A stretch of 61,623 nt of DNA, the filler included, from Hausera hauseri (lineage: Eukaryota), in NCBI GenBank assembly GCA_046269625.1. It is 12 parts of 12 records of this genome, joined end to end, with 100 filler letters (N's around TTAATTAATTAA, not from the genome) between each part and the next. Parts side by side here need not be neighbours in the genome. Positions count along the whole stretch, not along the records: positions 21,167 to 26,383 come from JBJURY010305277.1; 11 more parts are not named here. One strand, written 5' to 3'. Shown in pieces: positions 4,736 to 53,634 of this stretch. Under the pieces are notes generated by a model. It was not told where the DNA came from, did no database searches, and saw only the letters and a program-made list of their open reading frames with translations. Position 1 is the first letter of the stretch; each line of letters starts with the position of its first letter. Position numbers and translations under genes: made by a program.

Positions 4736-4974
4736 TACATCTGCTGGACCAACGGCATTGGCAATGTAACCAAACGAATTAATCGCTGCTCGTCGAATGG
4801 ATTTTTTCGGAGATTTCAGAATTTCTATTAAATCAAAACATATACGCATCCATTTTCGAGATCTTACTTGGTCGTTGGCTTTTTCCGCAATAAAACTGAC
4901 GATATTAATACAATTTTCTTGGACTTTTTCATTCCGATTTTTTAAGATCGGCGTTAAACGAGGAAAAATTTCAT
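4736..4974 (-). pseudogene. SF3B1: SF3B1 HEAT-repeat fragment, in frame with the titin-like ORF and open to the contig end
   Basis: Translates [79 protein letters not shown]. This matches conserved SF3B1 [19 protein letters not shown]...WMRICFELL..LKAHKK.IRRA..NTFGYIAKAIGP.DV. Confidence 0.9.
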
Positions 4975-7030: not shown

Positions 7031-7035
7031 ATTGG

Positions 7036-9101
7036 ATGATTAAATTAGTAACACTTCTGATGTTAAAACAATTGAGACCGATTACAGTATACGACTGACA
7101 AGTTCAAATGAGGTCAGAAATACTCCCTAATGGACTTGGAAATGTGCGAGGACGCCAGATCCCATAAGTTAGTAACAATTGAGAAAAAGTACTTTCTATA
7201 TCAGTAACGCGGGCTGATTGCGTGGAATGGAATAGAATGCATGTTGCGTAGATCTCGAAGCATTTTTATTGTGGACAAATGCACGGACATTCCTCGATAA
7301 TTAAGCCAACTACACTAACCCCTATGGACTTAGACAACAATGCAGACAGGCCAGAGACTGGAAGGTTGAGATGGGACGATATGGAATTATAAGCACAAAG
7401 AAAAATAATTCGGACATATAAGGTAGCAGTTGAAATATTAGACATGCACACCGGATACTGTAATGGAGCAGAATACGATATGGAGAAGGAAAAGGTGTAG
7501 TAGTAGTCGATTTTTATGAGACAAATGAGAAATCAAAGGGCAATGTTTTAGTGTTACAAAAGCATACACCGAAAATCAAGTGTCACATTCAAGATGGTGC
7601 CAGAGCCTTCTCGAGCTCGATAATTATTTCGACTCCACAACCTGTAAACGATTGTAACTTCCTTAAAATAAGAGATAAAATTCAACGAAACAACCGGAAA
7701 AAGTATATGGATACATTAGGTACGAATACCAGATCAAGGAAGGAACACCTCACCAACAATATGAATTTTAGACGATCATGGATTGAAATTCATTAAGAAG
7801 CAGATGTTCTACCGATGTAACGTAGTAATGTACGCCACCAACTACGAAGCATTTTTTGTCGCAGAAGCTAAAATAACTACCTTCACGTTGGAAACGCAAG
7901 ACGTGAGGATAGAAGATTACTTGAAAAATAGACATGATTATTTCTACTATAAGGGACAAACCGGAATAGCAGAACTATACCACAAAACGATTACGAATGA
8001 TTGTAAGTTGAACATGGAAATTGAGAACCAAATTAGCTTTAATATACGACAATCCATAACTAGCTTCACCATAATTTCGATGAAAGAAGGTATTTTTAGA
8101 CGAGTCACCGGAGAAGTCTTACTAACATATGAATCCGAGAAACGAGATGTATTTATAAACGTCGAGGAAAATCGCTGTATACAAGAATTGCCAATCTTAT
8201 ACCAGAATGTACCTCGATTACCCACGCTACTTACTAGAGTCTTACTGGAAATCTCAACGCAGCCAACGATTTGAAGGAATGTACATAGGGTCCAGGAGAA
8301 CCCATGTTTAGAAGTGAGATTGGGCAAGTCTGCCAAATGGTGGAATAACAGCAGCACCGAGTAAACTAACAGGAATGAACTTGGTAAAGGGTATAAGGGA
8401 TGATAGATTCGCCGACACCGCAAGCAACGGAATTTACAAACCGAAGGAAATTGAAACCTTTAGACAATTTCTAGCTTTTCCTCGTCAGCGTACACATGAA
8501 CTGAACAGAGTTATGTCGACAGTAATAGATGATACTGGCTATCAGGCGAAATGAGAATCTTTACTTGGTGCTAACCACGGAAATATACAAAATCTGGATG
8601 TTTAATTTTCGGACAAGCCGCATCTGGATCTTTAGCCATCTATTTCCTAGTACAATTAATCAAAGCATTAATTAAATCCATTATACACGGTTATGAAATA
8701 TTCACCTTAACTGGATTTTCGTGTAAAATTTTGACAGCAATCATAACGCCTTTTGGAAAACTTTTGAAGGCATGAGGAGGGCAGATGGAAAAGTGATGTT
8801 GAAAGATATTGGTTACTATAATCGGAAACGAAAGGGAAGACCTGTATTCAAAGGACGAAAGGATATAAAAACACGAAGGAACAATTCGGACGATGACGAG
8901 CCTAAGGAAGGAGACGCGGTCTCCAAAATAAATAAGCATAAGGCATACTCAGTCTTAAAACCTCTGCCCATGTTGCCCCCTTCGGCACCTGTATATGAGG
9001 ATTGCGATAAAAGATCGATTAACTCATACAGATCAGAAATCTTTCGAAAACTTTTCAATTATGAAGGGACAAAGCAATATGGTGTCTTACGAAAAATATG
9101 A
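7036..9101 (+). pseudogene. Chuvirus-like (Jingchuvirales) class III glycoprotein, decayed endogenous viral element or env-like gene
   Basis: Signal peptide MIKLVTLLML then VYD[C]..YSLMDLEMC. Also CMLRRSRSIFYCGQMHGHSS, GIFRRVTGEVLL...RCIQELPILY...TRVL and GIYKPKEIETFRQFLAFP. C-terminal hydrophobic segment IIHGYEIFTLTGFS. Many stops and frameshifts. Confidence 0.75.
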
Positions 9102-9215: not shown

Positions 9216-11925
9216 ATCGGTCGAAAACACGTATGAACAGTTCTGCAAATAATAGTCACTGGTATTGCAAGTCACTCCAGACAAGTATATCGTTCCGCTC
9301 CCGCCACCATAGTTAGGTATGATTATGCCGAAGGCAATATCCTTATATCCTAGGCTGTGACACAAAGGAAGAGCCGTGACAATCCCAACACCAGCACTGC
9401 ACACAGTCCCCCAGCCACTCCCAGCGGCTGGCTGTATCTCAACCCTGCCGCGTCCAGCAATATCACCACCACCAAGCCGCAATGCCCACAACACAGGGTT
9501 CGTCGACGTCGGACCACGGCAGTTCACTCCAACGTCCTCAGCGTGCGTGCAGGTGTTCCACATCTCGCTAGGCGAAGAGTACGAATATGAGCAGTTCTGA
9601 ACATAGTAGTCCGTAATGGTGCAGCTTACATTCGAGAGGTAGACAGTCCCACTCCCCCCTCCGAAATTCGGCAGCACAACACTACTATTTACATTCATGT
9701 ACCCGAGTGAGTGACAGGCAGCAACAGCCGATGCATTCGTGAATCCGGTGCTACACACAGTCCCCCACGAGTCGTATCGTGTGGGTCGCATCTCCAGACG
9801 GCCTCGTCTAGATGAACCTCCACCACCAACCAATCGGAACTCCCACTGGCTAGAATCTGTGGGAGCAGTCCCGCGACAGTTGATGGATATATCATGGACA
9901 TGTCGGCAATCACTCAAATCCACAAACTCGGTCGAGTATATAAATGTGCAATTCTGAATATAAAAGTTCGATGATTGACAGTTAACGTTATCCATGTAAA
10001 TGGGACCAGTGCCGGTTGCTCCGTAAAAATAGTAAGCATTAGTCATGTTGGTCCATCCTAGAGAATGGCACACAGCCAACGCAACTCTGTTATTGAACCA
10101 GTCGTGACACACCGTACCCCACGGTGACACAGAGCTCGGGCGTGCACGCAGTACCCCATACCGCCCACCTTCACCGAGAGAGAACTCCCAGTTCCCTGGC
10201 GGCGGCCGATAGTTCCGAATTGGGGCATTACCTCTGGGATAGCAGTTGACAGTAACATCCCCACTGTGTGTACACCCACTCCAGTCCTGCGTTGGCGTCG
10301 AGTATACATACGTGCAGTTCTGTAGGTACACATTCGAGGCACTACAGCTCACGTTTGACATGTAGATCGTCCCAGTGCCATAGCTGCGTTGCGCTTCATC
10401 AGTCACGAACGCAGCGCTTGTAACAGTGAGTCCACTGCTCCGACACGCAGCAAGAGCAGCAGTGTTGTCAAAGCCACTCACACCACACACAGTCCCCCAT
10501 GAAGACACATTGTCAGGACGCACGGACAATAGACCAGCATACGGTGAGCTCCCAGTAATACGCACCTCCCATCCACGAGGCCGCACATCCCGTGACGAGT
10601 TAGATGTCAGCGTGAGCAGTCCGAATAATTCTCCAATACGCGACATGTTCACATTCAGCAACCGAAAGTCAAGAAGGCTCCGCGACGGATCAATGTAAAA
10701 AGAAATAGCTGGAGGATCCATAAAGCGGAACTGCATCGTGCCAATACCGGACGTGCCCGTACCCTGTGTATGGAATACCCACACACGCGAGTCGCTCACA
10801 TTCACGTATTGTGCAATCTTCGCACTCACCTGTGATGCACTCGTCACAGCATTATTGTATGTCCCAGTGTACCCAATAATTGAGGCATTGCTCTGTGGCG
10901 TCACACCCCGGCAGTCAACACCAACGTCCTGTGCGTGGACACAGCTGTTCCACATATCAGCATCGGTCGAAAACACATATGAACAGTTCTGCAAATAATA
11001 GTCACCAGTATTGCAAGTCACTCCAGACAAGTATATCGTTCCGCTCCCGCCACCATAGTTAGGTATGATTATGCCAAAGGCAATATCCTTATACCCTAGG
11101 CTGTGACACAAAGGAAGAGCCGTGACAATCCCAACACCAACACTGCACACAGTCCCCCAGGTACTCCCAGAGTTTGGCTGTATCTCAACCCTGCCGCGTC
11201 CAGCAACATCACCACCACCAAGCCGCAATGTCCACAACGCAGGGTTCGTCGACGTCGGGGAACGGCAGTCCACACCAACATCCTCAGCGTGCGTGCAAGC
11301 GTTCCACATCTGGTTAGGCGAAGAGTACGAATACGAGCAGTTCTGGACATAGTAGTCTGTTGGGGTGCAGCTTACATTGGAAAGGTACACAGTCCCACTC
11401 CCCCCTCCGAAGTTCGACAAAACAACACTACCTGTCACATTCATGTACCCGAGTGAGTGACAAGCAGCAACAGCAGACGCATTCGTGAACCCTGTGCTAC
11501 AGACAGTCCCCCATGAGTCGTATCGTGTGGATCGCATTTCCAAACGGCCTCGTCTAGATGAACCTCCACCAACCACTCGGAACTCCCACTGGCTTGGATC
11601 TGTGGGAGCAGTCCCGCGACAGTTGATGGACACATCCTCGAAATGATGGCAATCATTCAACCGCACAAACTCGGTCGAGTATATAAATGTGCAATTCTGA
11701 ATATAGAAGTTCGACGGTTGACAGTCAACGTTATCCATGTAAATCGCACCAGTGCCGCTCGCTCCGAAAAAATAGTAAGCATTAGTCATGTTGGTCCATC
11801 CTAGAGAATGGCACGCAGCCAACGCAACATTGTTATTGAAATAGTCGCGACACACCGTACCCCACGGTGACACAGAGCTCGGGCGTGCACGCAGTACCCC
11901 ATACCGCCCACCTTCACCGAGAGAG
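9216..11925 (-). repeat. Intragenic higher-order repeat, unit about 1743 bp (4 different SRCR domains plus a linker)
   Basis: Near-identical DNA at an offset of 1743 (e.g. cgtgcacgcagtaccccatac at 10141 and 11884). Confidence 0.85.
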
Positions 11926-12249
11926 NNNNNNNNNNNNNNNNNNNNNNNNNNNNNNNNNNNNNNNNNNNNNNNNNNNNNNNNNNNNNNNNNNNNNNNNNNN
12001 NNNNNNNNNNNNNNNNNNNNNNNNNCCACACACAGTCCCCCATGAAGACACATTGTCAGGACGCACGGACAATAGACCAGCATACGGTGAGCTCCCAGTA
12101 ATCTGAACCTGAAACGGAGCCGTAACACCTATTGTCATTGTCCCATTGGTTCTAATGCCACCTTGAATCCGCTGTGCAGCATAAACGGCTCTGTCAAAAA
12201 AAACGGTGGCTAAAAGAAGTTGGACAGCAATGTAAAAAATAATCATCAT
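9216..12249 (-). CDS. Large secreted/surface scavenger-receptor cysteine-rich (SRCR) repeat protein, 3' end missing
   Basis: Signal peptide from ATG at 12249 (MMIIFYIAVQLLLATVFF). At least 8 SRCR domains (GR.E.....WGTVC...F....A...C.SLG...G.G.I.L..V.C...C.H.EDVGV.C). Spans the N gap at 11926-12025. Intronless. Confidence 0.9.
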
Positions 12250-15200
12250 GTATTAAGATTTGGCCAGTAACTCTAAAATAGCCGTTCAACGAGGCTAACA
12301 GCACACACACTGGATTTTTTCAATAGTATGCAAGCTCGCTTGTATACAAGTAATGGAATCCTCTTCTAATCAACGGTCAAAACACACTCCTTGCAATAGG
12401 ATCCTCGTCCCCACGTCCCTTGGGTAGTGTTCACAAATAGAACTCAGCGAACCTAGCCCAAGAACCGGAGACTATAGTAAAAAAGATTATTAACGTCCAA
12501 GCAGTAGCGAAGTTTAATTCGAGAACAATAAAAAAGGTGCAATGTTTCCTTTTATAGAAAATTGTATTTAACTAGTGTTATCTCGTCTATTCGTGTTATA
12601 ACAACCTATTGATAGCAAAATCTCCAATATATCGTAATTGGCATTCAATGGAAAAAGGAATAACACTGAGAAAAGAACAAATATCCTGATAGGATGGTTA
12701 ACAAACAAACGCACATGGAGAGTGTCTGGGGGCATTCACGCACACATAAATCGAGCCCGGTAAGTGTAAAAAAGAAAAAACAAAAAAGCATGAATAAAAA
12801 ATGCACATCAATGTGTATAACGGGCTCGTACGGTCGTGTTGCGTCTAGATCATCATTCACATGTTACACGCTTTCCCCTGCAATTGAGATGTTTTTCTAA
12901 CACAGGTCAGTGTCACATAACATGTAAACTATGCACCGTTCAACTATCAATACCTTTGACTGGTAACGTCAATGACTTCATTGAGTAGAATCACAAATTC
13001 AGCAGAAACTAACAACGATACGCATGTACATGCATTATTACTACAAATAATCATAATAGTCCAGGTATGCATCGGAGAGACAAGCAAACGTCAGACAGCA
13101 TACAAGGTCACAGTACATGAAAGAAAGAAACAACAACTCAGTCGCAACGAAGAAGCAGTAGCTTTTTATATAAAAAAACAATAAACAGCATTATGTCTCT
13201 TACAGAGAAACATACTCACAAAGCAAGACATGGGTTAAATAAGTAGCAATCATCCATAAAATATAACTAAAATGGACTAGCGCCATCAACAAATAAATAA
13301 GTCACGCGACCCAACAAAACAAACACCTCATCTTCAACGTTCGCTCAGCATGTAACCACAGCACAAGAACCTATGAAAACAAGGAAGCGTGTTTCTACAC
13401 GTTTTCTCATTAGTTAATTGCACCTGTGTATAAATGGAACGGATAACATAAATTAATCAGGAACATATACACGTTTCCACATGATGAACACGATTCTACA
13501 GAAGCAGCAATCGAGGCACTCGGCGCTCCATTAGAAACAAAAAAAACACGACGACACTTCTCACCCATGCAAACATTCTACCTCATGCAACAGAGGCATT
13601 TCTCCCCACAAGATGTAGCACACTAATACGTGCCCTACAGTTCATTCAGAAAGCATCAATAGCTCCTCGAAATGTGTAGTGAACCACTAACAACAATACA
13701 CTACAACCATGTAGGTGTGCAGAAAACCAACAGCAACAGATCAGTTCAAACCTCTTCAAATGATTCTAAAGAGAAAATCAAGTACACAGTCGCCCTGGGA
13801 GCGAGCGGCGCGCAGAATAGTCATTGGTAAAAATGGGCTCTATTTAACTGAACCATAGTACGTCGCCATGGTTGAAATGGATTGTTCTTGCACCAACCGT
13901 CACTAGTTTAATCTGTTTGAGGTGATCGACTTCCGTTACTACGGACATCGAAAAATGCACTGATGTTCACCATGATAGCAATTACAGTCACAGCTCAGCC
14001 CACATTTAAACAATCAAACACATGCTCAGGCTAAAATCAATGACATCTCGGTATCTCTCTAAACACCAGATGACACCTCACGTGCACCAACTTTATCAAA
14101 GACCATTTCGTATAGAACAACACCACCTTTCAACCAGGACACAACAAGACTCCCTCAGTCAGATACTCAATATCAGTCATGTCCATTGACCTCTACACAC
14201 AAAACACCCATACATAAGAATCCACAGCGTGCAAACCCCACTTACACAGACAGCCCTCGGCGTGATGACTCACACTGAGCAGTACAAATCGACTGATGCG
14301 ATAAACAAATCCGTCCAACCGAGCAAAACAGGCAGTAACATCAGCAACATGAACACGATAGCAATTGGATGCCAAGCATTAATGAGACGTGTCCTCCCCG
14401 TCATTCGAGACCAAGTTGCAAACAGTACTGCTAAAGCGCTCAGAATCCTCAGGGTGGTCTCGCTGAGTTCAACAATAAATTCATCTGGGTGTACAACCGA
14501 GACATACTCCATGAAGTCACACTGTTGCTGGAGGGGATGACCCCTTGTGGTATCACTTACTACGCGCGAGTAGAAGCGTTCACTACAAAACACACCACTT
14601 GTGAAATTGATCACGTCCACACAACTCCAGAATACAAAAAATTTAGTACCGCGCGTCAATCCATCAAGCACACACCAGTCGTCACTCGGCTTTAACCCGC
14701 AGAGGACAACTGATACCCGTTCATTCAAATTGCTACGCACGTACCCAGAATCACAACAATCGAGCTCCACAATTAGTTGCACTTTCCATATATCAACTAT
14801 CACGACAACAGTGATTATTTCTATAAACAAGGAAACAATATCCTCTGTGGACACTCCACCATTAACGCCAATGAAGCAAGAACAAGAACGCACACTCTGG
14901 GGCACAAACAAAAAAAAAAAAAAACAATAAAGACCTCAACGCACGCAATAATACCTTCGCCATTTTCATACACAGGAACGGTACATATAAGACACATCCG
15001 ATTGGTGTGTTCATCGATCCCGCCTCCACACGTACAAAGGGCGAAGGCCCTAGCGCGGCCGAGGATAGAGTAATCGTCGTCAGGAAGGTATGTATGCGAG
15101 GCCAAAAATGTATCATTGTAATCTGTATTCACAGACAACAGCTCATCAGCACAACAACCCTCGAATGTTGTTCCAACAGTCATCTCCAAATGAACAAAAA

Positions 15201-17599
15201 CAGTGATTCCGTCGTTGTCAACAAGGACAAGCTTGTAATAAAACCGTAACCATCGTCACATGTACCCATCTGTTTCGCTTTCAACTGCTGCTGTTTGTAG
15301 CACAAATTGCATTACACTGTAGTGCAGGTCAAATAGCGTCCCGAAGAACAGAGCGCTACACTCTTTCTTTTCTCTCTTGCACTTTGCTACCTCAGCATAC
15401 GAAAGAACAATGATATGTTACTCTTTCTGATAATCGTTATGAGTGTGAAGCCAACCTAGTTTAGTAATGAAAAGCGAACAATTCCTTCCCCGGGTTGTTA
15501 GAGGAGTTTGTATTTCACCGCTCCTGTGTAATCATGGTTCTCTAAAGATCATTATTCAGCGACAACAATAAAACAAACAACAATGAAGCCAAGCTCGCTA
15601 GGGTATTAGTGCAGTAGCGCCTGACATTCGGCTCTCATCTCAAGCAAATGCTCGTACGTATCCAGGAAATTAATGCTATTGCGACGGAGTACAGAAAAAT
15701 ATTAAAAGACAAAACCACGAGAGACAACAAAAACGATATCCAACATAACAACAGCAAGCTTCTTGGTAAAAGCAATCTCTACGATTTAAATGTATCCTAT
15801 CTGGCGAGCAGCTCGGACGTTCAATAAAGCCACGACACACTACTAAGCAGTTGACCGTTCCTTTACAAACACAGGAAACGGAAACATCTTTGACAATCAT
15901 GATACTGTCTCAAGTTATCTTCGGTTTGCTGATATGTTATTCGTATGGAAAACGACGTTGACATACCTCGCACGGAAGCGCAGACTCGGGTAGTTGAACG
16001 AGTATATTCTCCTCGAGACGTTGATTAATAATACAAGCGCCGAAGTGGCTGGCTTTTATTTGTTAAACAAGACTCGATCATTCGGTGTACTGTTCGTCAC
16101 AAAGAACACAAGTGGAGTCAATTTTGTTTTCATTTGCGTTACCACATTCAATAGTGTAATCGGACCTTGGTGTGCTTCCGGTGCGAGAGACAGGTATTGA
16201 ATTGAGAGAGAAAGTGGTCTGATCCGCGTTTCTACGACAGCTGCGTTCGCCATATCATAGCCATGTATTACTGTCGTNNNNNNNNNNNNNNNNNNNNNNN
16301 NNNNNNNNNNNNNNNNNNNNNTTAATTAATTAANNNNNNNNNNNNNNNNNNNNNNNNNNNNNNNNNNNNNNNNNNNNTTTATTTTAAATAACTACTTTTT
16401 GAGGCTACACTTTTATATTCGGAAATTATATTCTAAAATAGAAATTTCGTTCATCCGGTCTGAAATAAACTGATTAGTATAATAAACAATTAATAATATA
16501 GTTCTATGTTCATAAATTGCATAATACCTTCAATTTTAATTTTATGTCGATTTAGCCTTGTACGCCAGATAGTCATAATTAATATCAAAAACAGCAAATA
16601 TAATATTTATAGATTTATCAATAAATAATTATTGGTATGTTAATTTTGATAGCATCAAGCTGTTTTCGTACTGTAAAAATTGTATTCCTAATTACGATTT
16701 CTTTCTGTCAAAAGCCACACTTGTGAATTGTAATAATGAGTTAATCAAACATCGTCCATCAACAATGAATTTTGATCATACTGTTTGCCAGAAAACTCAA
16801 CTGCAGTCAATGTACAATGACTGGAGAGTGATTGTGCACTAATTAGGCAATGGAGGATAGCAGCATCTGCCGTTATTTGATTATGGAAATGGCAAAGCTA
16901 ATCAAGTCCGCAGAGATAATCCCCAACCAGATGAAAACTCAATTTCATTCTGTACTTACCAAACTAACTTATCGCTGAATTCCTACTAATACTAGTTGCA
17001 TTTTTCAGCCATTAGTAATAGCAGTTAATGACCAATTCATCAGTTATCCTTGGTTCATTCGGACAATTTGTCCAAAGATTTTACAGGCAAATAAATTGAA
17101 AATTAATGAAGCTTGTTTGTTGCCATTACATCTCACTGATGTTGTCCATCGCATCGTCGCTGCCGATCTGTGGTGTATCGAATTGTTGACGATTTGCCGA
17201 TGAAATTTTCAGTTATTTACATCATCGGTCAATTTGATCATTTGTGTTCAGTCGCTTCTTCTGTTGCATCTTCAACTTGCATAAATAATTGACATGATAT
17301 TGTCAAACTAATTTTTTTTCGTACGAAATTTTAGTTCGGATTGGGGACGTTATGATTATTTGATTGACGAGAATTTCTGCTTGGAATTCCTTTGACAATA
17401 ATTGCCGACTTTTATATTTAGGGTTAGTTGATTTATGAAAATTTAATTAGTCCGTTAGTGAAATTTTTGTTGCAAAAAGTGGAAGAAAGGCGGTGATTAT
17501 GAACTGAAATGAACGGAAGAAATAAAAAGACAAAAGAATGGCCTGAGTTCCATTGAAACTGGTCACAAAACTACAGAGAGAAAGTTCAAAGAAGTTTAT

Positions 17600-20510
17600 T
17601 CAAACAACCCCATTGCAGACGAAATCCACAAGGGAATTGATCTGTCTGAACTGATCCATAATTGCAGCTGTTGATGAACGCAATACTTTGTCTGTATGAA
17701 TGAGAACATTGCGGCATTCTAATTTCGTATCTGCTACCTCCACGTCGTCCTCTCTGTCATCTTCATCGTTATCAGATTCATCACACAATGCATCCCTGTT
17801 ATGCCTCAACAAAACCCATAACAAAACGCCGCACTGATCCACATTGCGTTGCCGTACCAATTGATTACGGAACACCCTCAATAACCCCATCATCGGGCCC
17901 AATCCATCTACATTTAATGCCGGATCCAACAATCTTATTTCATAATCCACAGAAGCCTCAGTCAATCCTGTCAACAACTGCATAACCCTGTCACATTGCT
18001 CATCTGTCTGTGCACCAATCAACAATTGGGCCAGTTCCTGTCCTGATTGAAGATCACTGTACTGATCCAATTCATCTGCACGACGTTTTCTACTATCCAC
18101 CTTGTCAATCGGTTTGTCTATTGAATCATTCCATGCAATTCCACGGACAGTTTCGACAATTTGCGGCAGGAAAAACTCATCAGCAACAAATCCCTTCGTG
18201 TCGGTTTGTCGTCGTTTCATCAAATCATCCAAACGCATCACCGTAGCCAAATAATTCGATGACAATTGGCACAACTGCACCATCCCCCCGTCAACAATTG
18301 GCGCAACCCCTTCCAACGGCAATTCATCCCCATCGGACTGATCGTCATCAGCGTCAGTATGGACAAGGGGCAAAGTCATAAATGCGGTCCGGTCGTCATC
18401 AACATGCCAATTCGGCAAAACAGTCAACGGCGCAGTTGGTCGACGGGCCCATAAATAAATCCCAACATCGTGGTCATGCGCAGTGGCTAACAGGGCATCA
18501 TTAGGGGATACCGAAACAGCGCGAATCGGACGTTGCGTAACAAAACAATCGACACAAACAGCATTGACGTAATCAAAAGTGCGCAACGCATTCCCATCGG
18601 CAACAACCGCCAATTGTTCGTGATGAAAGAACGCAACGTCAACAGGAGGGCCATGCAGTGCAACGCGTATCTGCCGGAATTTTGTCAAACCTGCCAATTC
18701 AACAAGTACCGCAGTACCGTCATATGTCAGTGCGGCAATCATTGTCATATCAGGATGACTGCGTAACAACTGCACACATGAATCCAATGACAACTGATTC
18801 AACAACAACATGCTCATAAAATCCCACATTCGTACAGAATCCTGTGCAGCAGTTACAAACACCGGCAGAACATTTGACAGCCCGCATTGCAATCCCCTAA
18901 TTGACGCAGAATCATGTGCCATAATTGTACCGCGTTCCTCACCGGATTGCATGTTATATTTCACTGCATGGCCACTACTGTATCCGACAATAATAAAATT
19001 CCCACACAGACTTATCGCACAACAATTTGCCGCCACTCGACTGTACAAATACTCATTCGCCATAAATACTGCGGCATCCAATAAATGTTTCCCACGACAT
19101 CGGCGACTCACTGACCATGTCGTCACTTGTCTAGAAGCATCATGACACATTGCCATACTATCCCAATAACCATCACGTAATGCACATAATGACAAATCCA
19201 CTGGATGACTCATGACGTATTGTTGTCGTGTTACTCTGTCCTCTCGTCGACTGCCGTGTCCTCGTTGATACGCACGCCCCATTGGATAATTCTGCCGTGG
19301 TTCTATAGTACTGAATACATGCACACGGCTATCATCTGCTGCACTGACAATTTCGGTTGAGAATCGCCCCGATGGCCAAAATTCGATGCAATGCGGCGGC
19401 ATGGAATGACCACATCGAAACCGAATAAGCAGCGGCGTACCGTCAGGTCGGTCATAATTCCACACTTTAATACTGTTATCTTCACCGCTGGACAATAACA
19501 AGGGTTGTCCGTCGACGCAATACAAACTGACAACTGCAGCATCGTGACAATGTCGTGATTGACCAGCATTGCGGCGATTGGCTAGATCAAATAACACAAC
19601 ATGGCCATGTTCAGTACCGATAATTGCCATCGGTCGATCATCAATATCAGTACGGAATGCAATAGATCTCACTGCACCCATGTCTTGTTCGATGGTGACG
19701 ACGTGACGGTCATATTGAATGTTATGAAGGACAACTGATCCATCTGCACATCCTACTGCAATGACGTGTTGTTGTGGGGACTAAATAACTCCATAAACAA
19801 AAGATAATTAAATAAAATACTCACATCAACAACAATCGTCACGTCACAATCCAATTCATACTGGAAAATGGTCTCATTCGTTCGGTATTTGTACAGCCAC
19901 ATTTTGCCATCGCGTGCGACAATCACCAATTTTCCGATGTATCCACGGGGCTGCAAAACACCGCAAATATCAAATTCACCAGCAGGAAACGGGACACTGC
20001 GGAATATTTCACCGGATACCACGTCAAAGAACACCAATTTATTCTGATTACCGGCAACAGCACAAATCATTCCGTCAACTTCCAGCGGCACGATACAACG
20101 CCAATTTGCACAACTTTCAGCCTCATACTGTTGATTTATGTGTTTGGCACGTTTTATTGAGTAGATTCGTTTTTCTGTGCCGCAGAATATAACAGTTTTC
20201 GTTGAGGCCATACACGTGATTTCCTCCGGTAATAAATCACCTGTTTGTCACAATGATTATTTTATCAAAAAAGTAATTTACTTGAACTCAATACTGCCAA
20301 ATCCGACAGCTAAACAATTACATAAATAACAAATTAACAAATCAAAACAATATTAACTCTATAAACAAGGAAATATTGACCGATTGCTGATAAAACATTA
20401 TGATCCTTTTTAAAGGTTTGATTTACAGTTAACGGGACTTTCGATGAATTCAGTCCCAATGCCTTCAATGGTGCAAACAAATTTCCTTTGCTACTTTTTT
20501 CTTCAGTCAT
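17600..20510 (-). CDS. WDR36: WD40 protein WDR36/UTP21 (SSU processome), 4 exons
   Basis: N-terminus LFAPLKALG. Motifs LLSSGEDNSIKVW..D..DG.P.L.R.R.GH, CGNFIIVGYSSG...KYNMQSG and SPNDALLATAH..DVGIYLW. GT-AG introns at 20357-20310, 20281-20241 and 19824-19781 restore the frame. Confidence 0.9.
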
Positions 20511-21166
20511 GAATTAAAAATTTTGAATTGTGCTGATTTTTTTGATTATTTAAACAAAGTTCATTGGCCATTATAAATTTTATTTAGCACTTCTTTCATG
20601 TTTTCACTTCTTCTTATAAATTAAAATTTTTAAATTATGTACCAGTACTATCTTTGATTCAATTCAAAAACATACATCAAATTCGGAATTTAATCTATAA
20701 TTATCACCCTGTATTTAGTTGAAAATAATTGTAAATAAGTATGTCTATATTTACTGCGAGATATATTTCATTTTTTGAAATGTTTTCAGAAAATTTGTTT
20801 TCTTTTATTTTAAATGTATTTTCCATAATTATTGTTATTATCTTTGAAGTTATTCTCTTCCCATGAAACAAGGAAATGTGTATAATTACTTTAAGTAAAT
20901 GTATAATTTCAATGGATCATAAAAGGTATGTTTTAGTCATTTTCCTTACTTTCTTTTCTTCATATAATTGTTTTGCGTTTCAATAATATTTAGTTTACTA
21001 TAAGTAAATAGTAATTACGACATCTTCCTCCATATAAAAAACAGCCAGTTTTCACTTATTTTTCACNNNNNNNNNNNNNNNNNNNNNNNNNNNNNNNNNN
21101 NNNNNNNNNNTTAATTAATTAANNNNNNNNNNNNNNNNNNNNNNNNNNNNNNNNNNNNNNNNNNNN

Positions 21167-21790
21167 CGGAAGCTCGACCCGTTTTAATTTCGGTGCCAGA
21201 TATTCACTTCGAGTTTTCACATCGGATTTATCTTCTAACATTAGAAGACCTCTCATTTGTATCATTTTTATTATTTCTTCATTTTGCATCTCAATGTTAT
21301 TTAACTCCTCGATTAATTCTGCTAGTTCTTCTTTTTTCTTCAACTTCCTGGCGAGTAACTTAAAGGCGCTGATCTCCATAGATAATTTCTTAAAGGTTTC
21401 ATCGTATTTACTGTTTTGACGTTGAAACTCTTCTTCGGTTAATCGATTATTCATTAGTGATTTTCTCTGGACTATCAACTCATATCTTAGTCCATCTTTG
21501 GCTAACAATTGACTCTCGAAATCTTCGTTTTCGATTGTACTTCCTCCTTTCAGTCCACAATTGATATTTATTGTTGCCCCATGGGGAATTTTTTGTATCG
21601 TCTCATCACCGTTCCACTTTCTATTATTGTAGATAATTACAGAGTTATCTATCATCATGTGACACTTTTCTGATATTTTTGTTTTCAACAGAGCGACTGT
21701 TTCTATTCCGTCAACATCAACAACGATTAGTAGGTTTTGGTTTACTTTCACAATGATTTGTTTTAATTGTGGTTCTTCAGACTCTATTTT
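21167..21790 (-). mobile_element. Ubiquitin-like domain fused to LTR-retrotransposon Gag-like N-terminus (family 1, copy a), truncated at the contig end
   Basis: KQIIVKV...ETVALLKTKISEK...IIYNNRKWNGDETI...GATININCGLKGG (21763-21542) aligns with ubiquitin. A helical region and PKLKRVELP follow, homologous to 49378-50247. Confidence 0.75.
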
Positions 21791-22653
21791 TTATTCTTTA
21801 ATTCTATCCTTCTCTTTCCCATCATTTCGTTTATTTTATCCTCATTGTCTTTCTCATCATAATTTGTATTGTTGCCCAAATCCTTTCCCACTATTTTTGA
21901 ATGTTTCTGTATTTCAATTTTTGCATTTCTTAAGTTGATGTCTGATGTTTTTTGTTTTTCTCCCTTTGACCATTTAATAACTCTTTTTCTATCATCTTGA
22001 ACTGTTGTGACAATTCTTTGGGTATTGTTTTGAACTTCATTATTTGAGGATCTGTTTTTTAACTCATCCTTTACAGTTCCCACGGAACATTCTGCCCACG
22101 AATTTGATTCCATTTCATTAGTTTCATCAACAAAAATGAATTTTTATATAAGATGTCTATTTTAATGTTTTCTACAATTTCATTTAAAGACAAATTTTTT
22201 AGAAAGAACAAATTTATTCTTACGTTTGATTTAGTATAATTTAAAACAGCAATATAGAAGTTATATAACCTTCCCCTGTAAGTTTTAACGCAATAATTAT
22301 AAAAAAGGGATTTAAAGTAGGGAGTGGGAACGGCAGACAATGACATACATGACAATCCAAAATAACTGACCTTTGTTTTATTTGACATTGTTTTCTCCTC
22401 GGTTCTGTATTTTCTGATTCGATATTTAGACATGATGTCATCGATTCCGTTTCGAAATGGAATTTCCACCCGACTAAACAGGTATACTTCAGCTTTGTTC
22501 TCGTAACTTCTGTTCGTTTCAGCTAAAATGTTGATTAAAGCGAATTTTAGGGGGATTCGGAACCCCGTTACAATCAATAATTGTGGTTCTAAAGAGAACC
22601 GTTAACATTCTTAATTTGATCAACTGCTTTAGTTCTGACAACTATTCTTTCTT

Positions 22654-23560
22654 TTACAACTCAGCTTCTTCAGCTTTTCGACGTTGCAATTCTATTTTTA
22701 TCTGAATTTTACGCAATTTTTCTTTTTCCAATGTCACTTTTTCGGATTCAACAATGGATCCGATTTGAGTTACATGATTTTCAATCTCCGTTGAATGGTC
22801 GGATGCTGCAGCGTCTTCTTTTAACTTTTCCAACAAACTTTTGTAGTCACTTATTTGATTTGTTAGTATTTGTGACAACTTTTCGGATTGTGGCAGAGTC
22901 AACGTTTCATTTGTTTCACCCACAAATAATTCAACAAATTCCAATTTGAACTTTTGCGCATTCGATATCAATCGTGAAAATCGATCATTGATCATCAATT
23001 TTAAAGAATTAACGCCCAATTCAAGTGTACCGAACCGATTTCTTAGTACTTCACATTCTCTTTCGTTTAAAGTATCACATCGCTGTCCAACTCGAAGATT
23101 TAATTCATTCAGACAGAGAATCTTCTGTTCTATTTCATTCAATATCTCTTGTAAATTATCTTTCGAATTCATTTCATCATTGTTTATCTCTAAAGAATAA
23201 TCGTAATATTTACTATAAACGTCTTTATTCATGGCATCAATCCATTCTTCTACAGCACCTATATGGAACACAATTTTGTAAATGTCGTTTCTGATAGAAC
23301 TTTTCGTTTATTACTTAATGTTTCTAAAGATTTTTGGGTCATAAATAAACGTCTTTTCAATTCATGGATGGTTTCCAAACATTCGTCTAAAATTACTGCT
23401 ATGTCATCTTCCCACATTTGGCTTTCAATGACTGGTTCATTCTGTACATCAATTGCTGTTATAACTTTGGCAATCAATGGATATTCTACCATTTTTAATT
23501 TCATCTTTATGTAATCGTAATTCGTCGATATTCGAACAAGTTTTAAACGATTGTGCTGTA
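22654..23560 (-). pseudogene. Coiled-coil/helical host protein fragment(s), unidentified
   Basis: ORFs 22654-23271 and 23259-23504 are heptad-rich and in the same orientation as the neighbouring fragments. Confidence 0.35.
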
Positions 23561-23612
23561 GAGCTTCGTGTTTTCCTTTTACCAGTTCAACATGGGCATT
23601 GACAACTCGTTC

Positions 23613-23900
23613 TTATACATGTAGAGATTTACTAATATTTATAGTTTCTTTTAGACGTAAACCTTCGGTTTTTGCATCCTCCTGTTTTTTGCTACCAGCT
23701 AAATCTACCAATTGTAAATAACTCCTCATGATATTATCAACATTTTTGTCCTTATAACGTGTTTTCAGTGAAATTGTGAAGATTGCATGACTTCGAGAGT
23801 TTTTTCTATTCATTACCGTGTTTCCAATATGACGGTTCTTTAAGACGCGGTTTAATATATTTTCAGTCGCTGTCGGATTTTCAATAGTTACTTCAGTTAA
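23613..23900 (-). pseudogene. Kinesin motor fragment (KIF15/kinesin-12-like switch I and II)
   Basis: NRHIGNTVMNRKNSRSHAIFTI...LQLVDLAGSKKQ...GLRLKETINISKSL, with degenerate switch motifs. Confidence 0.8.
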
Positions 23901-23914
23901 TAGCACAATGACGA

Positions 23915-24505
23915 CCTCTTGATTAACTTCTTCCAATCTATCGATTAAACCAGGAGCAAAACTAATGCTCTCCGTATTGTCAAGAGAGCTGACAACCCAT
24001 CCAATATTTTTACATTGACCAGTCTGAACGTCTCCATGAACGCATGTATTACCTTTTCGGAGTTTGTTAACGTTGACAACGACATCAACTTTAGAAGTTT
24101 CGGTAACGTTCGTTGTAATCATATATGTAACTCTGTCACTTTTAAAGTCATTCAATGCTGATTCTCTCTGTTGTTGATCACAATCACTGTGGATCGTTGT
24201 TACCATAAAACCCAGGTAACTCAATTTTATATCCAAAAAGTCAAATAATCTTTTGTTTTCAACAAACACCAACGTTTTTTGATCGGGAATCTTTTTAACA
24301 TACTCTAATGCTCCATTTAACTTTTCTTTCGGCTCCACACAGATCACTTCTTGTTTAATATCACTGTCAACAAGTTCAATAATACAAATGGCTAAAATTA
24401 AACAGTTTTTCAACAAATTCCTTGCTAAATCTTGAATTGCTGTGGGAATAATAGCATTGAACATAAATATTTGATTAGTTCTATCATTACCAGCGAGATT
24501 GATTT
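23915..24505 (-). pseudogene. Vasa/DDX4-DDX3-like DEAD-box helicase C-terminal fragment
   Basis: QIFMFNAIIP.AIQDLA, KTLVFVENKR..DFL, TTIHSDCDQQQRESALNDFK and GQCKNIG are degenerate versions of motifs III-VI. Confidence 0.8.
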
Positions 24506-24549
24506 TCCCTCAAAATCTTTTTACTATTTCAAAAATTCCTTCAAAATCT

Positions 24550-24713
24550 AAAACGCGATGGGCTCCAAGTACACCATTCTTACTACATAAAGTAACATTT
24601 ATATCCTTTGGAATGTAAAATGTTAGTAACATTGGTATTGAAATTCCTACATTCACATACATCCCTTTTTTCAATTCAACGGCTGCTCGTCTGACTATTT
24701 TCTCTGTGATCAA
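24550..24713 (-). pseudogene. Succinyl-CoA:3-oxoacid CoA-transferase (SCOT/OXCT) B-domain fragment
   Basis: EKIVRRAAVELKKGMYVNVGISIP...VTLCSKNGVLG matches RAA.E..GMY.NLGIGIP...L.SENG.LG. The catalytic Glu has been lost (SKNG). Confidence 0.8.
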
Positions 24714-25084
24714 TTTATTGAGTTTTCTTTTCTTTTGTTTCTGCCGTTTTCTGAAATATCAAATTGTCAAATTTATGGACCTTCCATTTTTTTATGAGGG
24801 TGGTCATCAACAAGCTCCGATTCTAATAAATACTTTACTTCATTAAAATCTCGTATTGCTTTTGATTTGTAAGACAAAAGGAGTATTTCATCGTTTGAGA
24901 ACCCTTCAACAATTTTGTACGGCATTTTCAATTGTTGGGGTGATTTCGATATTTTATGTTCATCGGGAAAATCTGTTTTCCTCATTGAAAGTCGCAACCA
25001 TGGTTATATCAAAAAATCAAACAAATGATGATGAAAAGCTGCCGATGAAATTATTTGGTTAAGCTCATTTTAAATAAACATTTT

Positions 25085-25780
25085 GCTTACCAAATCATAA
25101 GTCACCGAATTGACTTTATTTCTTATCAGTTTCGTAACATTCATGATGTTATGGCCAATTGGAAAATCCATCTCTGAGAACCTTAGTTGAGTGCCGGTTA
25201 AATCCTCTTTCGTTGGGACGCCCAACTGAGTAAACCAACTTGGTCAAAGATCTATTTCAACATCAGCACGGAATGGAGCCCTTCTCATTACCATTTTGAC
25301 AAAAATACATCCGAGAGACCAAATGTCGACTTCGGAACCGTAATAGCCTGTTTTCAGCAACAACTCCGTTTTATGATAGTTAATTGTGACAACTTCCAGT
25401 AAGAGAGGAATAAATGTAATTGAGACTTTCCTTACGAGCTCAAATTTAGATAATTTTATTTTTCGCGTGTAATGGTGTATTAATATATTATGGGATTTGA
25501 CATCTCTTTGAATAACTCGACGGTGGTGGCAAAATGATACAGCTTGAAGGATTTGAAACATAAAACCCTTATGCAATATATCCGTCATTTCATATAGTTT
25601 AAGAAAAATATCCAGACTCATTTTCATATATTCCAAATTCATATAACGGTTAGAGTAGGTCAGTAGTACTTGATGAAAACTCACAATATTTGGATGTGGA
25701 AAATTTTCAAACAAACTAATTTCCATTAATATCGTAATTTCAGTTAAATTTTCTGGTTTAAATTTTTTAACAGCAGAAAA
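25085..25780 (-). pseudogene. Cyclin-dependent kinase (CDK1/2-like) fragment
   Basis: AVKK, HPNIV, FCHHRRVIQRDVKSHNILI, EVVTINYHKTELLL, VDIWSLGCIF, F.ADVEID and LGVP. HRD, DFG and APE motifs are degenerate. Confidence 0.85.
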
Positions 25781-38049: not shown

Positions 38050-38603
38050 AATCCGTAAAAAAAACAAGTCAGCTTTACTCTCACCTTTTGAAATTCGTTT
38101 GTAGTATGTTGGGTTCCTGAAACCGTGTATAGGAAAATGAAATGAGAAAGGTTAAGTAAAGTTTTTAGCTTCTCAACTATTCAAAGGAGGTTTTTTTATC
38201 GATTACTTAGGTGTTGATATTAGTAAAAGGAGTAGTGTAATTGCACATTATAAAAATGCAAAATTCCAAAAAGAGTTTTTCATCCAAAATAATAAAAATG
38301 GCTACAATTATTTACTCAAGTATTTGAATGACTTAGACCACCCACAACTCATTTTTGAATCTACAGGTATCTATTCAAGAAGTATGGAACGATTTTGTTG
38401 TGTAAATCAAATTAACTATATTCAAATGAATCCGTTAGAAGCCAAATTTAAAACGAGCGCTCTAAGATCATGGAAAACTGATCAGGCAGATGCTCATAAG
38501 CTTGCTTGTTTAGGACCGACGCTCAAACAAACAGGCAGCTTACCTATACATGAGTTAATATTCTTTGAATTAAGAGAACGTGCCCGTTTTCATCTAGAAA
38601 TCG
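38050..38603 (+). mobile_element. Bacterial IS110-family element 5' part (staphylococcal ISSep2-like): non-coding leader plus DEDD RuvC-like domain
   Basis: Shine-Dalgarno AAGGAGG at 38184-38190, then ATC at 38198. Translates IDYLGVDISK...LIFESTGIYS...MNPLEAK...KTDQADAHKLA. Truncated at about 38603. Confidence 0.85.
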
Positions 38604-39536
38604 TTCAGGTCTAAGTACGTGTATGTCGTCACCCCAGATTTTCTTATCAAACATAACCGAATCAAGATTGGGAATTACTTGAGCTCCTCTAGGAATTATG
38701 TATTGTCCTAGAGTCGTCGTTTCTCCACAGACGCGTATCACACTCAGTGGTACAACACTTGTAACACGCTGAAGTTCTTTAATGAAAGCGTTCATGTATG
38801 GTAATTTATTACTGTCTGACATGGTGGGCTGTCTCTCAGTTCCAATTTCCTTCTCGATCTCACGGTAAACTTTCTCCTGAACTTCGGGATAGTGCAGCAA
38901 ATATAGAACACCCCACAGAATTGTATTAGCAGAAGTTTCTACGCCAGCGCCAAACAGGTCATAAATAACTTTCCTCAAATTTGCATCATCCATGGTGGTA
39001 GATTCTCCTGCGTTTTCTTTTTTGTTTTTGTAAAATATGTAGCTAGAAATGAAGTCGTTTAAATTATTTTCATCGATGGTCTCCGGTGTCTTGGCTTGGA
39101 TAAACGGCTCAAGGAATGAATACATTATATACTTTGCTCTGTGCTCCACTCTTTTGGCCTTAAAAATATCCCCGGGAAGTTTAAGCAAGATCGGGAAATA
39201 ATTGGCAAGATTCCGACCATCTGCATCTTCAACATTCATCCGAAGATTTTTTAAAACTTGGACAACATTTTTATCGTCATGCTGAAAAGTATGTCCAATC
39301 ATGATAGAACAGATGACGTTGGTGATGCTTGTCATAATTATGTCATGGATGTCTAAAGGATGCCCTTTGAAATTTGCAATGAGGTCGTTGTTGCTGGCAG
39401 CTAATTCTGAAATCTTCTGAGAAATGGAACTTTTACCCATACCAAGATCTCTTAAAATGGTCAGAGTTACATCCTTTTGTTCTTTCCATAAACCGCCATT
39501 AGAAAACACAATCCCTTTACCTGCTAAGCCAGTTGC
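38583..39536 (-). CDS. Cytochrome P450 (CYP2-clan-like) exon, truncated after PERF (no heme-Cys motif)
   Basis: GIVFSNGGLWKEQ, DLFGAGVETSA, ELQR and LRPERFLDENG. Splice acceptor tttcag just upstream (39542-39537). Confidence 0.88.
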
Positions 39537-40409
39537 CTGAAAGTATAGTTGAAGAAATAGTTTAAAACGTATGAAATAATTACGTATTTAATTAGTCATT
39601 ATTATCATCATGGCATTTGTAGATCGCCTGCTTGCCTGCTACTTTTAAATTAATGTTCAGACTTTCTTTGATGTCTTGTATCCATACAAGTAAAATTTAC
39701 ATATTCACAGCTAAAGAAGTACGAGGGAATATGTACCTAGAGTTGGCATTTTCCTTGACCAACTGATCATAATTGACTTCTGTGCTCAGCATAACGCCAA
39801 GCCAATTTTTCTTACTGAGAGAATTTTCTCTGCACACAGTTTGTGAAGCTGGTATTGAATCCGGAGCCGATTCGTTGGGAAACAATTCAACACCCAACAG
39901 GCTGGAATCAAAACTCACCACAGTTTGTCTCTTACATTTATCAAACTCAGTCATTAACTATAAACAGTTGAAGAAAGTGTTTTTTACTCCACAAACGTAT
40001 GTTTGCATCGCTACACGCCGAATGTTATCTTCTTCTTGTGTGTTTCTTTGATAATTTCGGTTGCATTATCATCTTCCATTAACAAGCCGTTTGTATGCCG
40101 TCCATGTCATTACAGCCCGCTCACAAGAATCTCTGTCTCGTGCTACTTTGTCTGTTGCTTTCAATGTAATGCTCAGATTACCTATAATAAGTTGTGCGAG
40201 GCTTATACGTGAAGCAATAAAGGCTACTTCTTGAACACTTTCACTGCAATCAAATAAAAACAATGCTGAATAAGAAATATAGCTGTCTGGCATCTATGGC
40301 TCCTAGCACCTGAAATCACCTGACATTTTTAACTAGCACTACTGTTGTCTGTCAGCAGAAAATTGATAATTGGCTAAAACCCCAGTACATTCAATTCAGG
40401 TATGAAATG

Positions 40410-40730
40410 AAGCATGGCTAGTCATGCTGCGAAGCGCAGGCCGACATGGTTCTCCATTTCTCGTAATACCTGGTGTCTCCAAACTTCTCTGCCGTTGACT
40501 TACTTCCGAGCGATTCTTGCAAACCATCCAGATATTTCATTCTTTGCCGTCCACTACTTCCTGGTTTTTGCCTGTGGTGACCAAGTTCTCCAGACCTTTT
40601 CTTAAAATATAACCAATCATAGATGGTTGTCTGTTTATGATCTTATTGATAAGGTTTCTTTCTGTGTCTGCTTCTTGTAAAACATCTTCATTTGTTCTCT
40701 ATGCTGTCCAAGGGATTTTCAACATTCTTC
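40410..40730 (-). mobile_element. RTE-clade LINE 3' remnant
   Basis: RMLKIPWTA*RTNEDVL.EA...R.LIN.I..RQ...GYILRKGLENLVTTGK...RMKYLDGL...WR.M. Confidence 0.75.
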
Positions 40731-40830: not shown

Positions 40831-41565
40831 AGCACTTTATGGATCGATAGTGTTCCGGGTGCACTATCGATCGGCACATGTGCAATATCGATTTATCGAT
40901 CCAACCCTTCCGGGGGGTCTGTGCCCAAATCCCCATTTTCTCCCTACTTCCAGCCATCTCAGGACATGCTTAATTCTTTTAAATCTTCCACAATTGTTGA
41001 CGGCGTGGCTTTAGACACTTCCCAACCAAGTCATTCCGTAATAATTCGCGCGCCACCTTTACAACGGCAAGCGTTTAACAGTGTACATTCGCTACACCAC
41101 CTTGGAGCTAAGGCTACTTTTCGTTTACTCCGCCGACAGGTAATTTGGCCATCAATGCGTTCTTATGTGCAAGCGTGGGTTAAGGAATGTGTGGCTTGCC
41201 AGAAATTTAAAACCATAAAACATTTGAAGCCACCATTATATCATTTCCCTTGCACAACACGTTTCGAGTCCGTTCATGTTGATCTCGTTGGCCCTCTTCC
41301 TCCTGACAACGGTCATCAGTTCACTTTGACCATGATGGATTATTCCGCACGTTGGCCACACGCTGTCCTCCTACGAAGCACTAACACAGACACAATAGCC
41401 GACGTTTTCATACGCGCTTGGATAAGCAGATATAAATCCCCTAGATTAATAGGAGGAAAATTTGCTTTCGGTCCCACCTGGGGGGGCAGGGGTAATCGAT
41501 AAATCGATTTTGCACATGTGCCGATCGATAGTGCACAGTGTGCACTATCGATCCAAAAAGTACCT
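40831..41565. repeat. About 75-bp inverted repeat pair (40831-40912 and 41494-41565), rich in ATCGAT/GTGCAC palindromes; related direct repeats at about 41673-41770 and 42106-42200
   Basis: gcactatcgatcggcacatgtgcaatatcgatttatcgat is the near reverse complement of atcgataaatcgattttgcacatgtgccgatcgatagtgcac. Confidence 0.8.
40921..41432 (+). mobile_element. Ty3/Gypsy integrase fragment (HHCC plus start of core), flanked by inverted repeats
   Basis: HSLHHLGAKAT...WPSMR..V..WVKECVACQ.FK and RFESVHVDLVGPLP...DY..RWP.A...WISRY. Confidence 0.88.
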
Positions 41566-44302: not shown

Positions 44303-44899
44303 CGAAAGGGGTGTCACAGGCCCTATTGAGTGGTGTGGCGATGGAAAAACCCGAGGTGTGGGACCAATTGGCATTGGACGCACTGTTAAGTAGTTGGTTA
44401 CGCTGTGATGTACTCGGAACTCAAGAGTATTTTTGCACACATGGCCAAAAATCTGAATCATCGAAGTAAATGGGCTGTAAGAAACAACCGCAACGGAGGG
44501 CGAAGTTTAAAAGGGGTGATGTTGTGTTGACGGCGGACATGTTGAGAACAAAAACATAAGAGAAAAACGGGAAAAGGGGATGGTTAATAAGAAGTAAATT
44601 AAAAAAATGGTTGCCTGACAAATAGAACGCAATGACAAATCTCACTTCGTCGTGCGCTGGTTTCTCCGCGGATGGCAGTATCGTTTTGCACTGTGGGCAC
44701 TGTAGATCGACTTTCTCACGTCGTGTCATCCTACGAGCGATCTTCGTACTCAACCACTCTGAACAAACCCACCGGTTCGTTATATATCGTCTGGTTTTCA
44801 TCGAATCTTGTCTGCTTGGCACCTTTTCACAGACGTCTGTAATCGATCTTTTTATACGCTTCACTCTGCAGTCTAATACTGATAAACTCACTATTTGAC

Positions 44900-45350: not shown

Positions 45351-45359
45351 GAAAAGCAA

Positions 45360-49258: not shown

Positions 49259-49377
49259 GAAGTTCGACCGGATTCCCCAACTAAACGGTCGGGTTCCAAC
49301 ACCCTTCTTCCTGCATGTCGAAATTTTCTGTCAACCTTTTCTTCTGACCATATAGGCACCTTTCTAACTGTAGTTGT

Positions 49378-53565: not shown

Positions 53566-53634
53566 CTAAAGATATTTTGCAATTTTCTAAAAGTTCCGAA
53601 ACCATTAATGAATCCAGTGTCATGTATATGCATT

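Follow-up and report, generated by a model that had tools for sequence, protein, structure and literature searches.

Long terminal repeat (LTR) retroelements are already known to capture genes, in most cases as a rare accident that involves one to three parents. In LTR-mediated retroposition in animals (Tan et al. 2016, PMC5131818; here and throughout, statements on published work refer to the available parts of each source), partial, intronless host sequence is joined to an LTR element with no poly(A), followed by later multiplication. More than one parent gene may be involved (two in the Pao BATUMI case), and one family has a fixed return site. The maize element Bs1 holds pieces of three host genes within an LTR element, in a hybrid reading frame (PMC13317346, PMC5131818). 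Drosophila tinkering loci are dense clusters of gene fragments beside transposons, with composite open reading frames (ORFs) possible (10.64898/2026.08.09.743762). Host-like domains, including ubiquitin/SUMO-like ones, were reported in the Gag polyprotein of the planarian giant gypsy elements Burro/GYPSM1 (PMC6431247), and in cytopathogenic pestiviruses a captured ubiquitin within the polyprotein serves as a host-hydrolase site that gives the next protein an authentic N-terminus (PMC8310069). Here, we describe a string of seven pieces, five of which match host genes, at 25788–22657 (minus strand) of a 61,623-nucleotide window from Hausera hauseri (GCA_046269625.1), upstream of a ubiquitin-fold domain fused to a Gag (Ubl-Gag) of BEL/Pao type.

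Like the retrocopies of PMC5131818, the string is partial, intronless and without poly(A), the parent genes themselves being outside the comparison. It differs in that the retrocopy there replaces part of the element ORFs, whereas gag is retained here behind the cargo, with the Gag start kept in four of four gag-linked strings; the unmatched ORF replacement lowers membership in that class, not likeness of mechanism. Compared with the two-gene cases described there, the string has up to seven pieces, keeps its frame as motifs erode and has ubiquitin between cargo and Gag. LTR-element sequence was seen on the 3′ side of the string, whose 5′ end is missing, and on both sides of the sister strings at 47212–44660 and 53529–55440. 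Bs1 is one plant element, called a new host gene (PMC13317346, PMC5131818), whereas strings are numerous in the present assembly of one animal and belong to two superfamilies, their copies drift neutrally at the protein level, and the cargo is N-terminal to the ubiquitin spacer. The pestivirus insertions (PMC8310069) are sporadic, belong to an RNA virus and have demonstrated cleavage; here, ubiquitin is a fixed part of a retrotransposon lineage, with cleavage predicted only. Tinkering loci (10.64898/2026.08.09.743762) are described as arising mainly by DNA-level ectopic recombination, with parental non-coding flanks and rare chimeric ORFs, whereas the pieces here are flush, intronless and all in sense. 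The Burro domains (PMC6431247) are stable and lie downstream of Gag in a gypsy element, whereas the cargo here is variable, erodes and sits upstream of a Gag of BEL type. New here is the frame kept while function is lost; the gag kept behind the cargo, the number of pieces and the ubiquitin spacer are further differences from LTR-mediated retroposition and Bs1. A literature search, with most subscription papers and supplements outside its coverage, gave no account of a ubiquitin-fronted BEL Gag or of such strings.

We think it rather likely that the string is a mosaic of host mRNA pieces, brought by reverse transcriptase (RT) template switches into a BEL/Pao element and kept in frame, with ubiquitin as a predicted cleavable spacer. 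Capture appears routine in this one animal, with up to seven stacked pieces seemingly filtered for reading frame over protein function. If true, this would provide a route to expressed multi-domain fusion ORFs as raw material for new genes, a reason for a retrotransposon to keep ubiquitin before Gag, and a case in which selection acting on translatability alone could be studied. More speculatively, the many sense copies with CDK1, Vasa and kinesin sequence might also supply small-RNA pathways that act against the parents.

Pieces of the string and the Gag behind it

The window comprises 12 short contigs separated by N spacers, with the string in the contig at 21167–26383; trinucleotide make-up differs between contigs, so the assembly is mixed. 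The contig with the string is assigned to an AT-rich invertebrate host; Gyrodactylus is a poor fit for a host with a Vasa-like parent gene, as this genus lacks vasa (PMC4040987). All pieces lie on the minus strand and abut, with no introns or parental non-coding flanks between them. The string opens with a CDK1/2-like kinase piece (25016–25788) covering most of the domain (Pfam Pkinase, E 1.7e-35; PDB CDK2, E 4e-38), whose best PDB matches are CDK2 and CDK1 and to which CDK2 residues 33–293 align with no long insert. It is followed in the same frame by the coding-like piece X (24736–25015), with a loose contig end at 24743 coinciding with its 3′ joint and no match in Pfam or PDB searches. Then come a SCOT (3-oxoacid CoA-transferase) piece (24564–24731; Pfam CoA_trans, E 2e-6; PDB SCOT, E 1.6e-11), a Vasa-like DEAD-box helicase piece (23912–24563; Pfam Helicase_C; PDB Vasa, E 1.4e-21, the best match, and DDX3X, E 7.7e-20), and a KIF15-like kinesin motor piece (23571–23911; Pfam Kinesin, E 1.2e-23; PDB KIF15, E 3.9e-19, the best kinesin match). 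The helicase piece continues the frame of SCOT, and the kinesin piece that of the helicase, with which it shares one 298-aa ORF. The next piece (23300–23570), in frame with the kinesin, gave no match in an initial search at an E cut-off of 0.01; a weak Pfam DHC_N1 match below the cut-off (E 0.0036), along with PDB matches to outer-arm dynein beta (E 0.06) and DNAH17 (E 0.2), suggests that it is likely an axonemal outer-arm dynein beta heavy-chain piece. The string closes with a coiled-coil piece of 214 stop-free codons (22657–23298), shifted in frame relative to the dynein piece, to which Pfam and PDB searches gave no identity. The plus strand of the contig had no Pfam match, and word-seeded protein searches with the helicase–kinesin ORF and with the CDK piece returned no scoring match.

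Catalytic motifs are eroded in translation: HRD reads QRD and DFG reads KFE in the CDK piece, and SENG reads SKNG in the SCOT piece. In the Vasa piece, 36 of 74 invariant columns (those on which DDX3X and two Vasa proteins agree; counted by eye) are changed and three more are deleted in frame, with one in-frame 12-nt gap. An earlier note on this DNA had listed the CDK, SCOT, Vasa-like, KIF15-like and coiled-coil pieces, sense to gag, together with the motif losses, all of which were recovered; it had missed the dynein-like piece. Its placing of the string directly upstream of the Ubl-Gag is right as to order, with ~900 nt lying between the string's end at 22657 and the ubiquitin-fold domain at 21763. 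Its term "decayed copies" suits the motif loss but not the frame, which is kept beyond the prediction for simple neutral decay (see below). The leaning of the cargo toward germline and proliferation transcripts is doubtful and unsupported in the form given there; outside the main string, the cargo includes twitchin, protocadherin, SF3B1, USP7 and primase.

Behind the string lies a 60-nt head (22550–22611, minus strand) in the frame of the coiled coil, with very high copy number and predicted hairpins. Its bin has a depth of 747, from which ~2300 was derived for the head alone, the highest depth. The head starts with TG, and 11 contigs depart at 22611 with an agreement of 0.58, making 22611–22550 a candidate for an R region or for the start of an LTR. 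In the latter case, the string would lie outside the element; if the head is instead a fixed section within the leader or within a long LTR, the string would lie inside. The leader (21791–22549, minus strand) has two open frames (176 and 119 aa) and no significant match in a Pfam search; its depth is lower than those of head and Gag, which indicates that it is variable among copies. No repeat pair (paired LTRs) was found in the contig, and a search for primer-binding sites (PBSs) of the form ACA-N0-5-TGG gave no candidates from head to Gag and three inside coding cargo, the string's 5′ end being missing. A PBS-like 13-mer at 22643–22631 was not counted, as it has three mismatches.

The ubiquitin-fold domain (21542–21763, minus strand) ends in Gly-Gly (Pfam ubiquitin, E 0.0027). 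Its model, with a predicted local distance difference test score (pLDDT) of 74, has a beta-grasp fold, matched by Foldseek to NEDD8/ubiquitin (E 5e-5, prob 1.0, TM 0.62). It is followed by the Gag (21167–21541, minus strand; depth 1490–1650), comprising a coiled coil and the start of DUF1759, which is cut by the contig end; 64% identity to P0001, whose DUF1759 match has an E of 7.6e-20, assigns it to BEL/Pao. With the window's second Ubl-Gag as query, HMMER gave five matches among 1.84 billion representatives. A near-canonical ubiquitin lies directly N-terminal to a DUF1759 Gag in P0003, P0004 and P0005, DUF1759 being also present throughout P0002–P0005. Gly-Gly ends the ubiquitin domain in five of the six sequences spanning the site, with Ser next in all six. 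In P0004, an eroded HSP90 piece (E 1.1e-11) is fused N-terminal to ubiquitin. P0002 has a BEL Gag with two CCCH zinc fingers, then a protease, behind which a CFAP58 coiled-coil piece (E 1.7e-18) is fused in frame, where pol would be. Both fusions belong to other records and show the pattern again. The structure model of P0001 (pLDDT 47) was too low in confidence and left unused, and an Atlas search with the second Ubl-Gag gave no usable match. By likeness to the pestivirus ubiquitin insertions (PMC8310069), host deubiquitinases are predicted to cut after Gly-Gly, freeing Gag from its N-terminal fusion.

On the other side of the string, the segment 25789–26383 has a CpG observed/expected ratio of 0.31 versus 1.1, with 7 CpGs at 25800–26383 versus 22.8 expected, the string itself having 92 versus 83.9 expected. 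Depth is 0 at 25822–25860, and a run contig departs from the stretch sequence at 25788. The segment is probably vertebrate-like DNA set on the string's 5′ end by an assembly or library join and foreign to it; together with the departing contig, it indicates that the string's true 5′ context is missing.

Joints, reading frame and intron content

Copy evidence was drawn from one sequencing run, X1, which holds 0.74 of the stretch's words and is possibly the source sample itself; the joint bridges are based on 8 listed records of 1011 and 8 of 96. Among these listed contigs, three of the six joints were bridged with at least 31 letters per side: the dynein/coiled-coil and kinesin/dynein joints with 0 differences, and the SCOT/Vasa joint in a diverged copy with six. 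The Vasa/kinesin joint is crossed by a run contig with only 8 letters on one side, and the CDK/X and X/SCOT joints have read depth with no bridge among the contigs listed. Contigs depart at 25017, 24743 and 23911, all joint positions, and another contig extends the kinesin 5′-ward from 23911. At the Vasa/kinesin joint, a 6-nt in-register match was seen by eye, ending ~8 nt before the joint (a single joint with a second continuation, no statistics). In one run contig, a Vasa motif that is eroded in the string is intact, which indicates a parent or a younger copy in X1. The cargo is multi-copy: on 23850–25860, 96 run contigs were found, with 19, 30, 25 and 22 at 99+, 95–99, 90–95 and <90% identity, respectively; some of these contigs may be parents or paralogues. 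A search for related loci in metagenome and viral contigs found none.

A single frame of 477 codons, interrupted by 2 stops, runs through the SCOT, Vasa, kinesin and dynein pieces; over the full string, 7 of 1042 codons are stops. Neutral simulation to 40–45% residue change gave 8–10 stops per 488 codons, with 17.5–22 expected in the string against the 7 observed (P 0.004–0.0002). Joints are in frame at five of seven positions in the string (P 0.045). Across the stretch, this holds for six of seven joints with both genes identified, for eight of nine when two PBS joints are added (P 0.001 at a null of 1/3, 0.004 at 0.4), and for 11 of 16 when partners without identity are included (P 0.004 at 1/3, 0.019 at 0.4). 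The frame is retained while motifs erode, and is better kept than neutral decay predicts. Among the 40 listed differences between copies, 34 were scored, six being left out (five that lay beyond the long frame or close to its joint, one in a stop codon). They comprised 22 non-synonymous, 11 synonymous and 1 stop change versus shares of 0.70/0.26/0.04, and were spread 10/12/12 over codon positions; both the ratio and the even spread are as expected without protein-level selection among copies. Small indels in the leader of other copies have sizes compatible with a single frame from string to Gag. Hypermutation was considered, with 61 sense-strand A/G changes versus 33 C/T changes among copies (P 0.07 after base composition). 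With 7 stops and 2 frame changes, this genomic copy is now dead. A variant genetic code was rejected as an explanation, since stop codons of more than one kind occur and the conserved residues at which they fall differ.

The CDK and Vasa pieces have no long inserts relative to solved homologues, and 0 introns were found in ~725 aligned codons versus 6.4 expected at the density of the DHX37 gene (P 0.002). The 3′ part of this gene, within 31741–34190 (plus strand), has three GT-AG introns (52, 43 and 56 nt) in 338 codons; the expectation is that of one gene, with a common host taken from a trinucleotide correlation of 0.975. A short-intron rule gave 0 candidates in the string but recovered one of the three DHX37 introns, and alignments were used instead. 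No poly(A) was found at the joints, the sole A7 run lying inside piece X. In the four gag-linked strings, each of the ten pieces with an identity has the orientation of gag (P 0.001 with the pieces taken as independent; 0.06 by string).

Two of these strings are of gypsy type and of one family. In the first (44660–47212, minus strand), an ATG at the LTR end and a PBS at 47170–47158 precede pieces of cadherin and primase, behind which lie the leader and gag. The second (53529–55440, plus strand) has the ATG, a PBS at 53553–53565, APC1, USP7 and a third piece, then leader and gag, with its cargo in one frame of 736 codons to 55736 with 4 stops. The two copies (47212–43356, minus; 53529–57432, plus) have LTR end, ATG, exact PBS and leader–gag in common, and different cargo. 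The label "gag" is our assumption here, from motif likeness; the Pfam search gave no gag match. The 13-nt PBS motif, which we take to be a tRNA-Leu site, has only two exact matches in the stretch, among four at ≤2 mismatches (1.5 expected). In two of two gypsy strings, the cargo lies directly behind the PBS, and the common ATG reads through the PBS in frame with the first cargo piece. The remaining string accompanies the second Ubl-Gag (49381–53343, minus strand; 28% identity), whose locus (47459–53343, minus strand) is truncated and flanked by a long, LTR-like, 60–86% identical repeat; a decayed leucine-rich repeat gene piece of ~950 nt lies in the 5′ repeat copy only.

For the earlier note, these data confirm abutting, intronless pieces over the aligned spans and, within the four strings, a common orientation relative to gag. 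The read support that it had asked for at the junctions is present at three joints, the other three being without a full bridge among the contigs listed. Its interpretation is supported in part: the absence of introns, the uniform sense orientation and the cargo flush with the PBS in the two gypsy contigs favour its proposal that RT captured mRNAs serially by template switching, whereas its Pack-TE/Helitron alternative is disfavoured.

Proposed capture mechanism and rival explanations

In the mechanism that we propose, minus-strand synthesis would pass gag and leader, after which RT would jump to a co-packaged mRNA and return at or near the LTR/PBS, so that each captured piece would lie in sense and 5′ of gag; repeated rounds would stack pieces. 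Translation would begin upstream of the cargo, and only in-frame, stop-free inserts would let the element RNA yield Gag (or escape nonsense-mediated decay), a translatability filter suggested by the frame and stop counts. The amino acids of the cargo would be unconstrained, so that catalytic motifs could erode, and host deubiquitinases would cut after Gly-Gly to release Gag from the cargo. A wider generalization is put forward tentatively, and we lean against it at present: a BEL/Pao lineage with a fixed captured ubiquitin before Gag as a host-cleaved spacer may have its 5′ translated region as a free landing site, such elements being frame-filtered recorders and shufflers of the host transcriptome that mass-produce multi-gene fusion ORFs, with gypsy elements doing likewise via LTR-started translation.

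Several observations weigh against frame-filtered capture into a BEL/Pao element. Bridges cover only three of six joints among the contigs listed, in a run that is possibly the source sample. The 5′ end of the string is cut by the foreign join, and its placement inside an element is borrowed from the sister contigs. Neither an LTR end nor a PBS was found for the string's own element, and the LTR-like start of the head at 22611, along with the 11 contigs departing there, means that the string could be flanking DNA. The stop deficit has a P of 0.057 if the true residue change is ~30%, and the divergence figure comes from one piece (Vasa), eye-counted against distant orthologues. Long ORFs attract notice, which biases the frame count; two of the seven string joints are out of frame, and no copy was seen to be open from cargo into Gag. 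All eight listed indel places among other copies are frameshifts, which fits dead genomic copies and also shows that frame-keeping is not universal. Finally, the second Ubl-Gag has Glu-Gly, not Gly-Gly, at its domain end.

The string could instead be RT-captured cargo of another element (such as the gypsy family) or of an older LTR, with a BEL element inserted beside it whose LTR starts at the head. The TG start and highest copy number of the head, the contigs departing at 22611, the lack of a PBS found between string and Gag, and the gypsy elements of the stretch that bear such strings would all fit this arrangement. However, the 11 loose ends at 22611 share letters (agreement 0.58) and are not unrelated flanks, and eight contigs span 22657 with a common difference, so sequence left of the head is multi-copy. 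Moreover, orientation and frame run on from the coiled coil into the head, and P0004 has host cargo fused to ubiquitin–Gag elsewhere. We regard this arrangement, which likewise implies RT capture, as unlikely. Accumulation of fragments at the DNA level, by ectopic recombination at transposons or a Pack-TE/Helitron process and by chance beside a BEL element, is very improbable: gene-fragment clusters beside transposons are described as common in Drosophila (10.64898/2026.08.09.743762) and the host intron density comes from one gene, but here there are no introns or non-coding flanks between pieces, the sense is uniform, joints are in frame, and the cargo is flush with the PBS in both gypsy strings.

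Still less credible are library or assembly chimeras of gene or pseudogene pieces, produced by whole-genome amplification or ligation. Suspect joins do occur in the stretch (the vertebrate-like end, an IS110/CYP contig and a fold-back in the contig at 40831–47358), and the sole run with the sequence is possibly its source sample; against this, a diverged copy has the same SCOT/Vasa joint, the bridging contigs have depths of 10–12, and chimeras would leave the eroded motifs, the frame bias, the PBS-flush starts and P0004 unexplained. A LINE-type or chromosome-end reverse transcription that added mRNA copies serially to the 5′ end of a broken element would also predict sense, head-to-tail pieces 5′ of the element, with U6-L1 chimeras and Terminons (for the latter, PMC6431247) as models, yet no joint has poly(A), the pieces are internal coding stretches and not 3′ ends, and the LTR end and PBS before the sister strings would be left unexplained; of the explanations considered, this is the least probable.

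Other contigs of the window

A stop-free ORF of 1615 codons at 128–4972 (minus strand) joins an SF3B1 HEAT piece (PDB, E 1.4e-30) in frame with twitchin-like Ig/Fn3 repeats, which show an in-frame half-repeat deletion; the contig has no gag and is possibly a young string. At 5077–9098 (plus strand), a broken Monjiviricetes-type fusion glycoprotein (E 1.3e-8 and 9.6e-10) with ORFs upstream may represent a retroelement with env or an endogenous viral element. Two GC-richer contigs at 9216–21066, encoding an SRCR-repeat protein and WDR36/Utp21, differ in trinucleotide make-up and probably come from other organisms. ORFs at 27715–31157 (plus strand), with no match in a Pfam search, are presumably like Polinton/adintovirus genes, as judged by a motif.

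Within 31741–34190, the DHX37 part gives way to a kinesin piece, decayed and with its frame shifted, and to short tandem repeats; the kinesin piece (33586–33945) has 56% identity to that of the string, too diverged for dating. At 36508–40730, a bacterial IS110-family transposase (plus strand) adjoins an intronless cytochrome P450 (minus strand), and the contig looks like a library or assembly chimera. In the fold-back at 40834–41561, an inverted repeat of 67 nt encloses an integrase piece that lies on the strand opposite to gag. At 59474–61623, arrays of a 16-nt unit flank a 159-nt inverted repeat on both sides.

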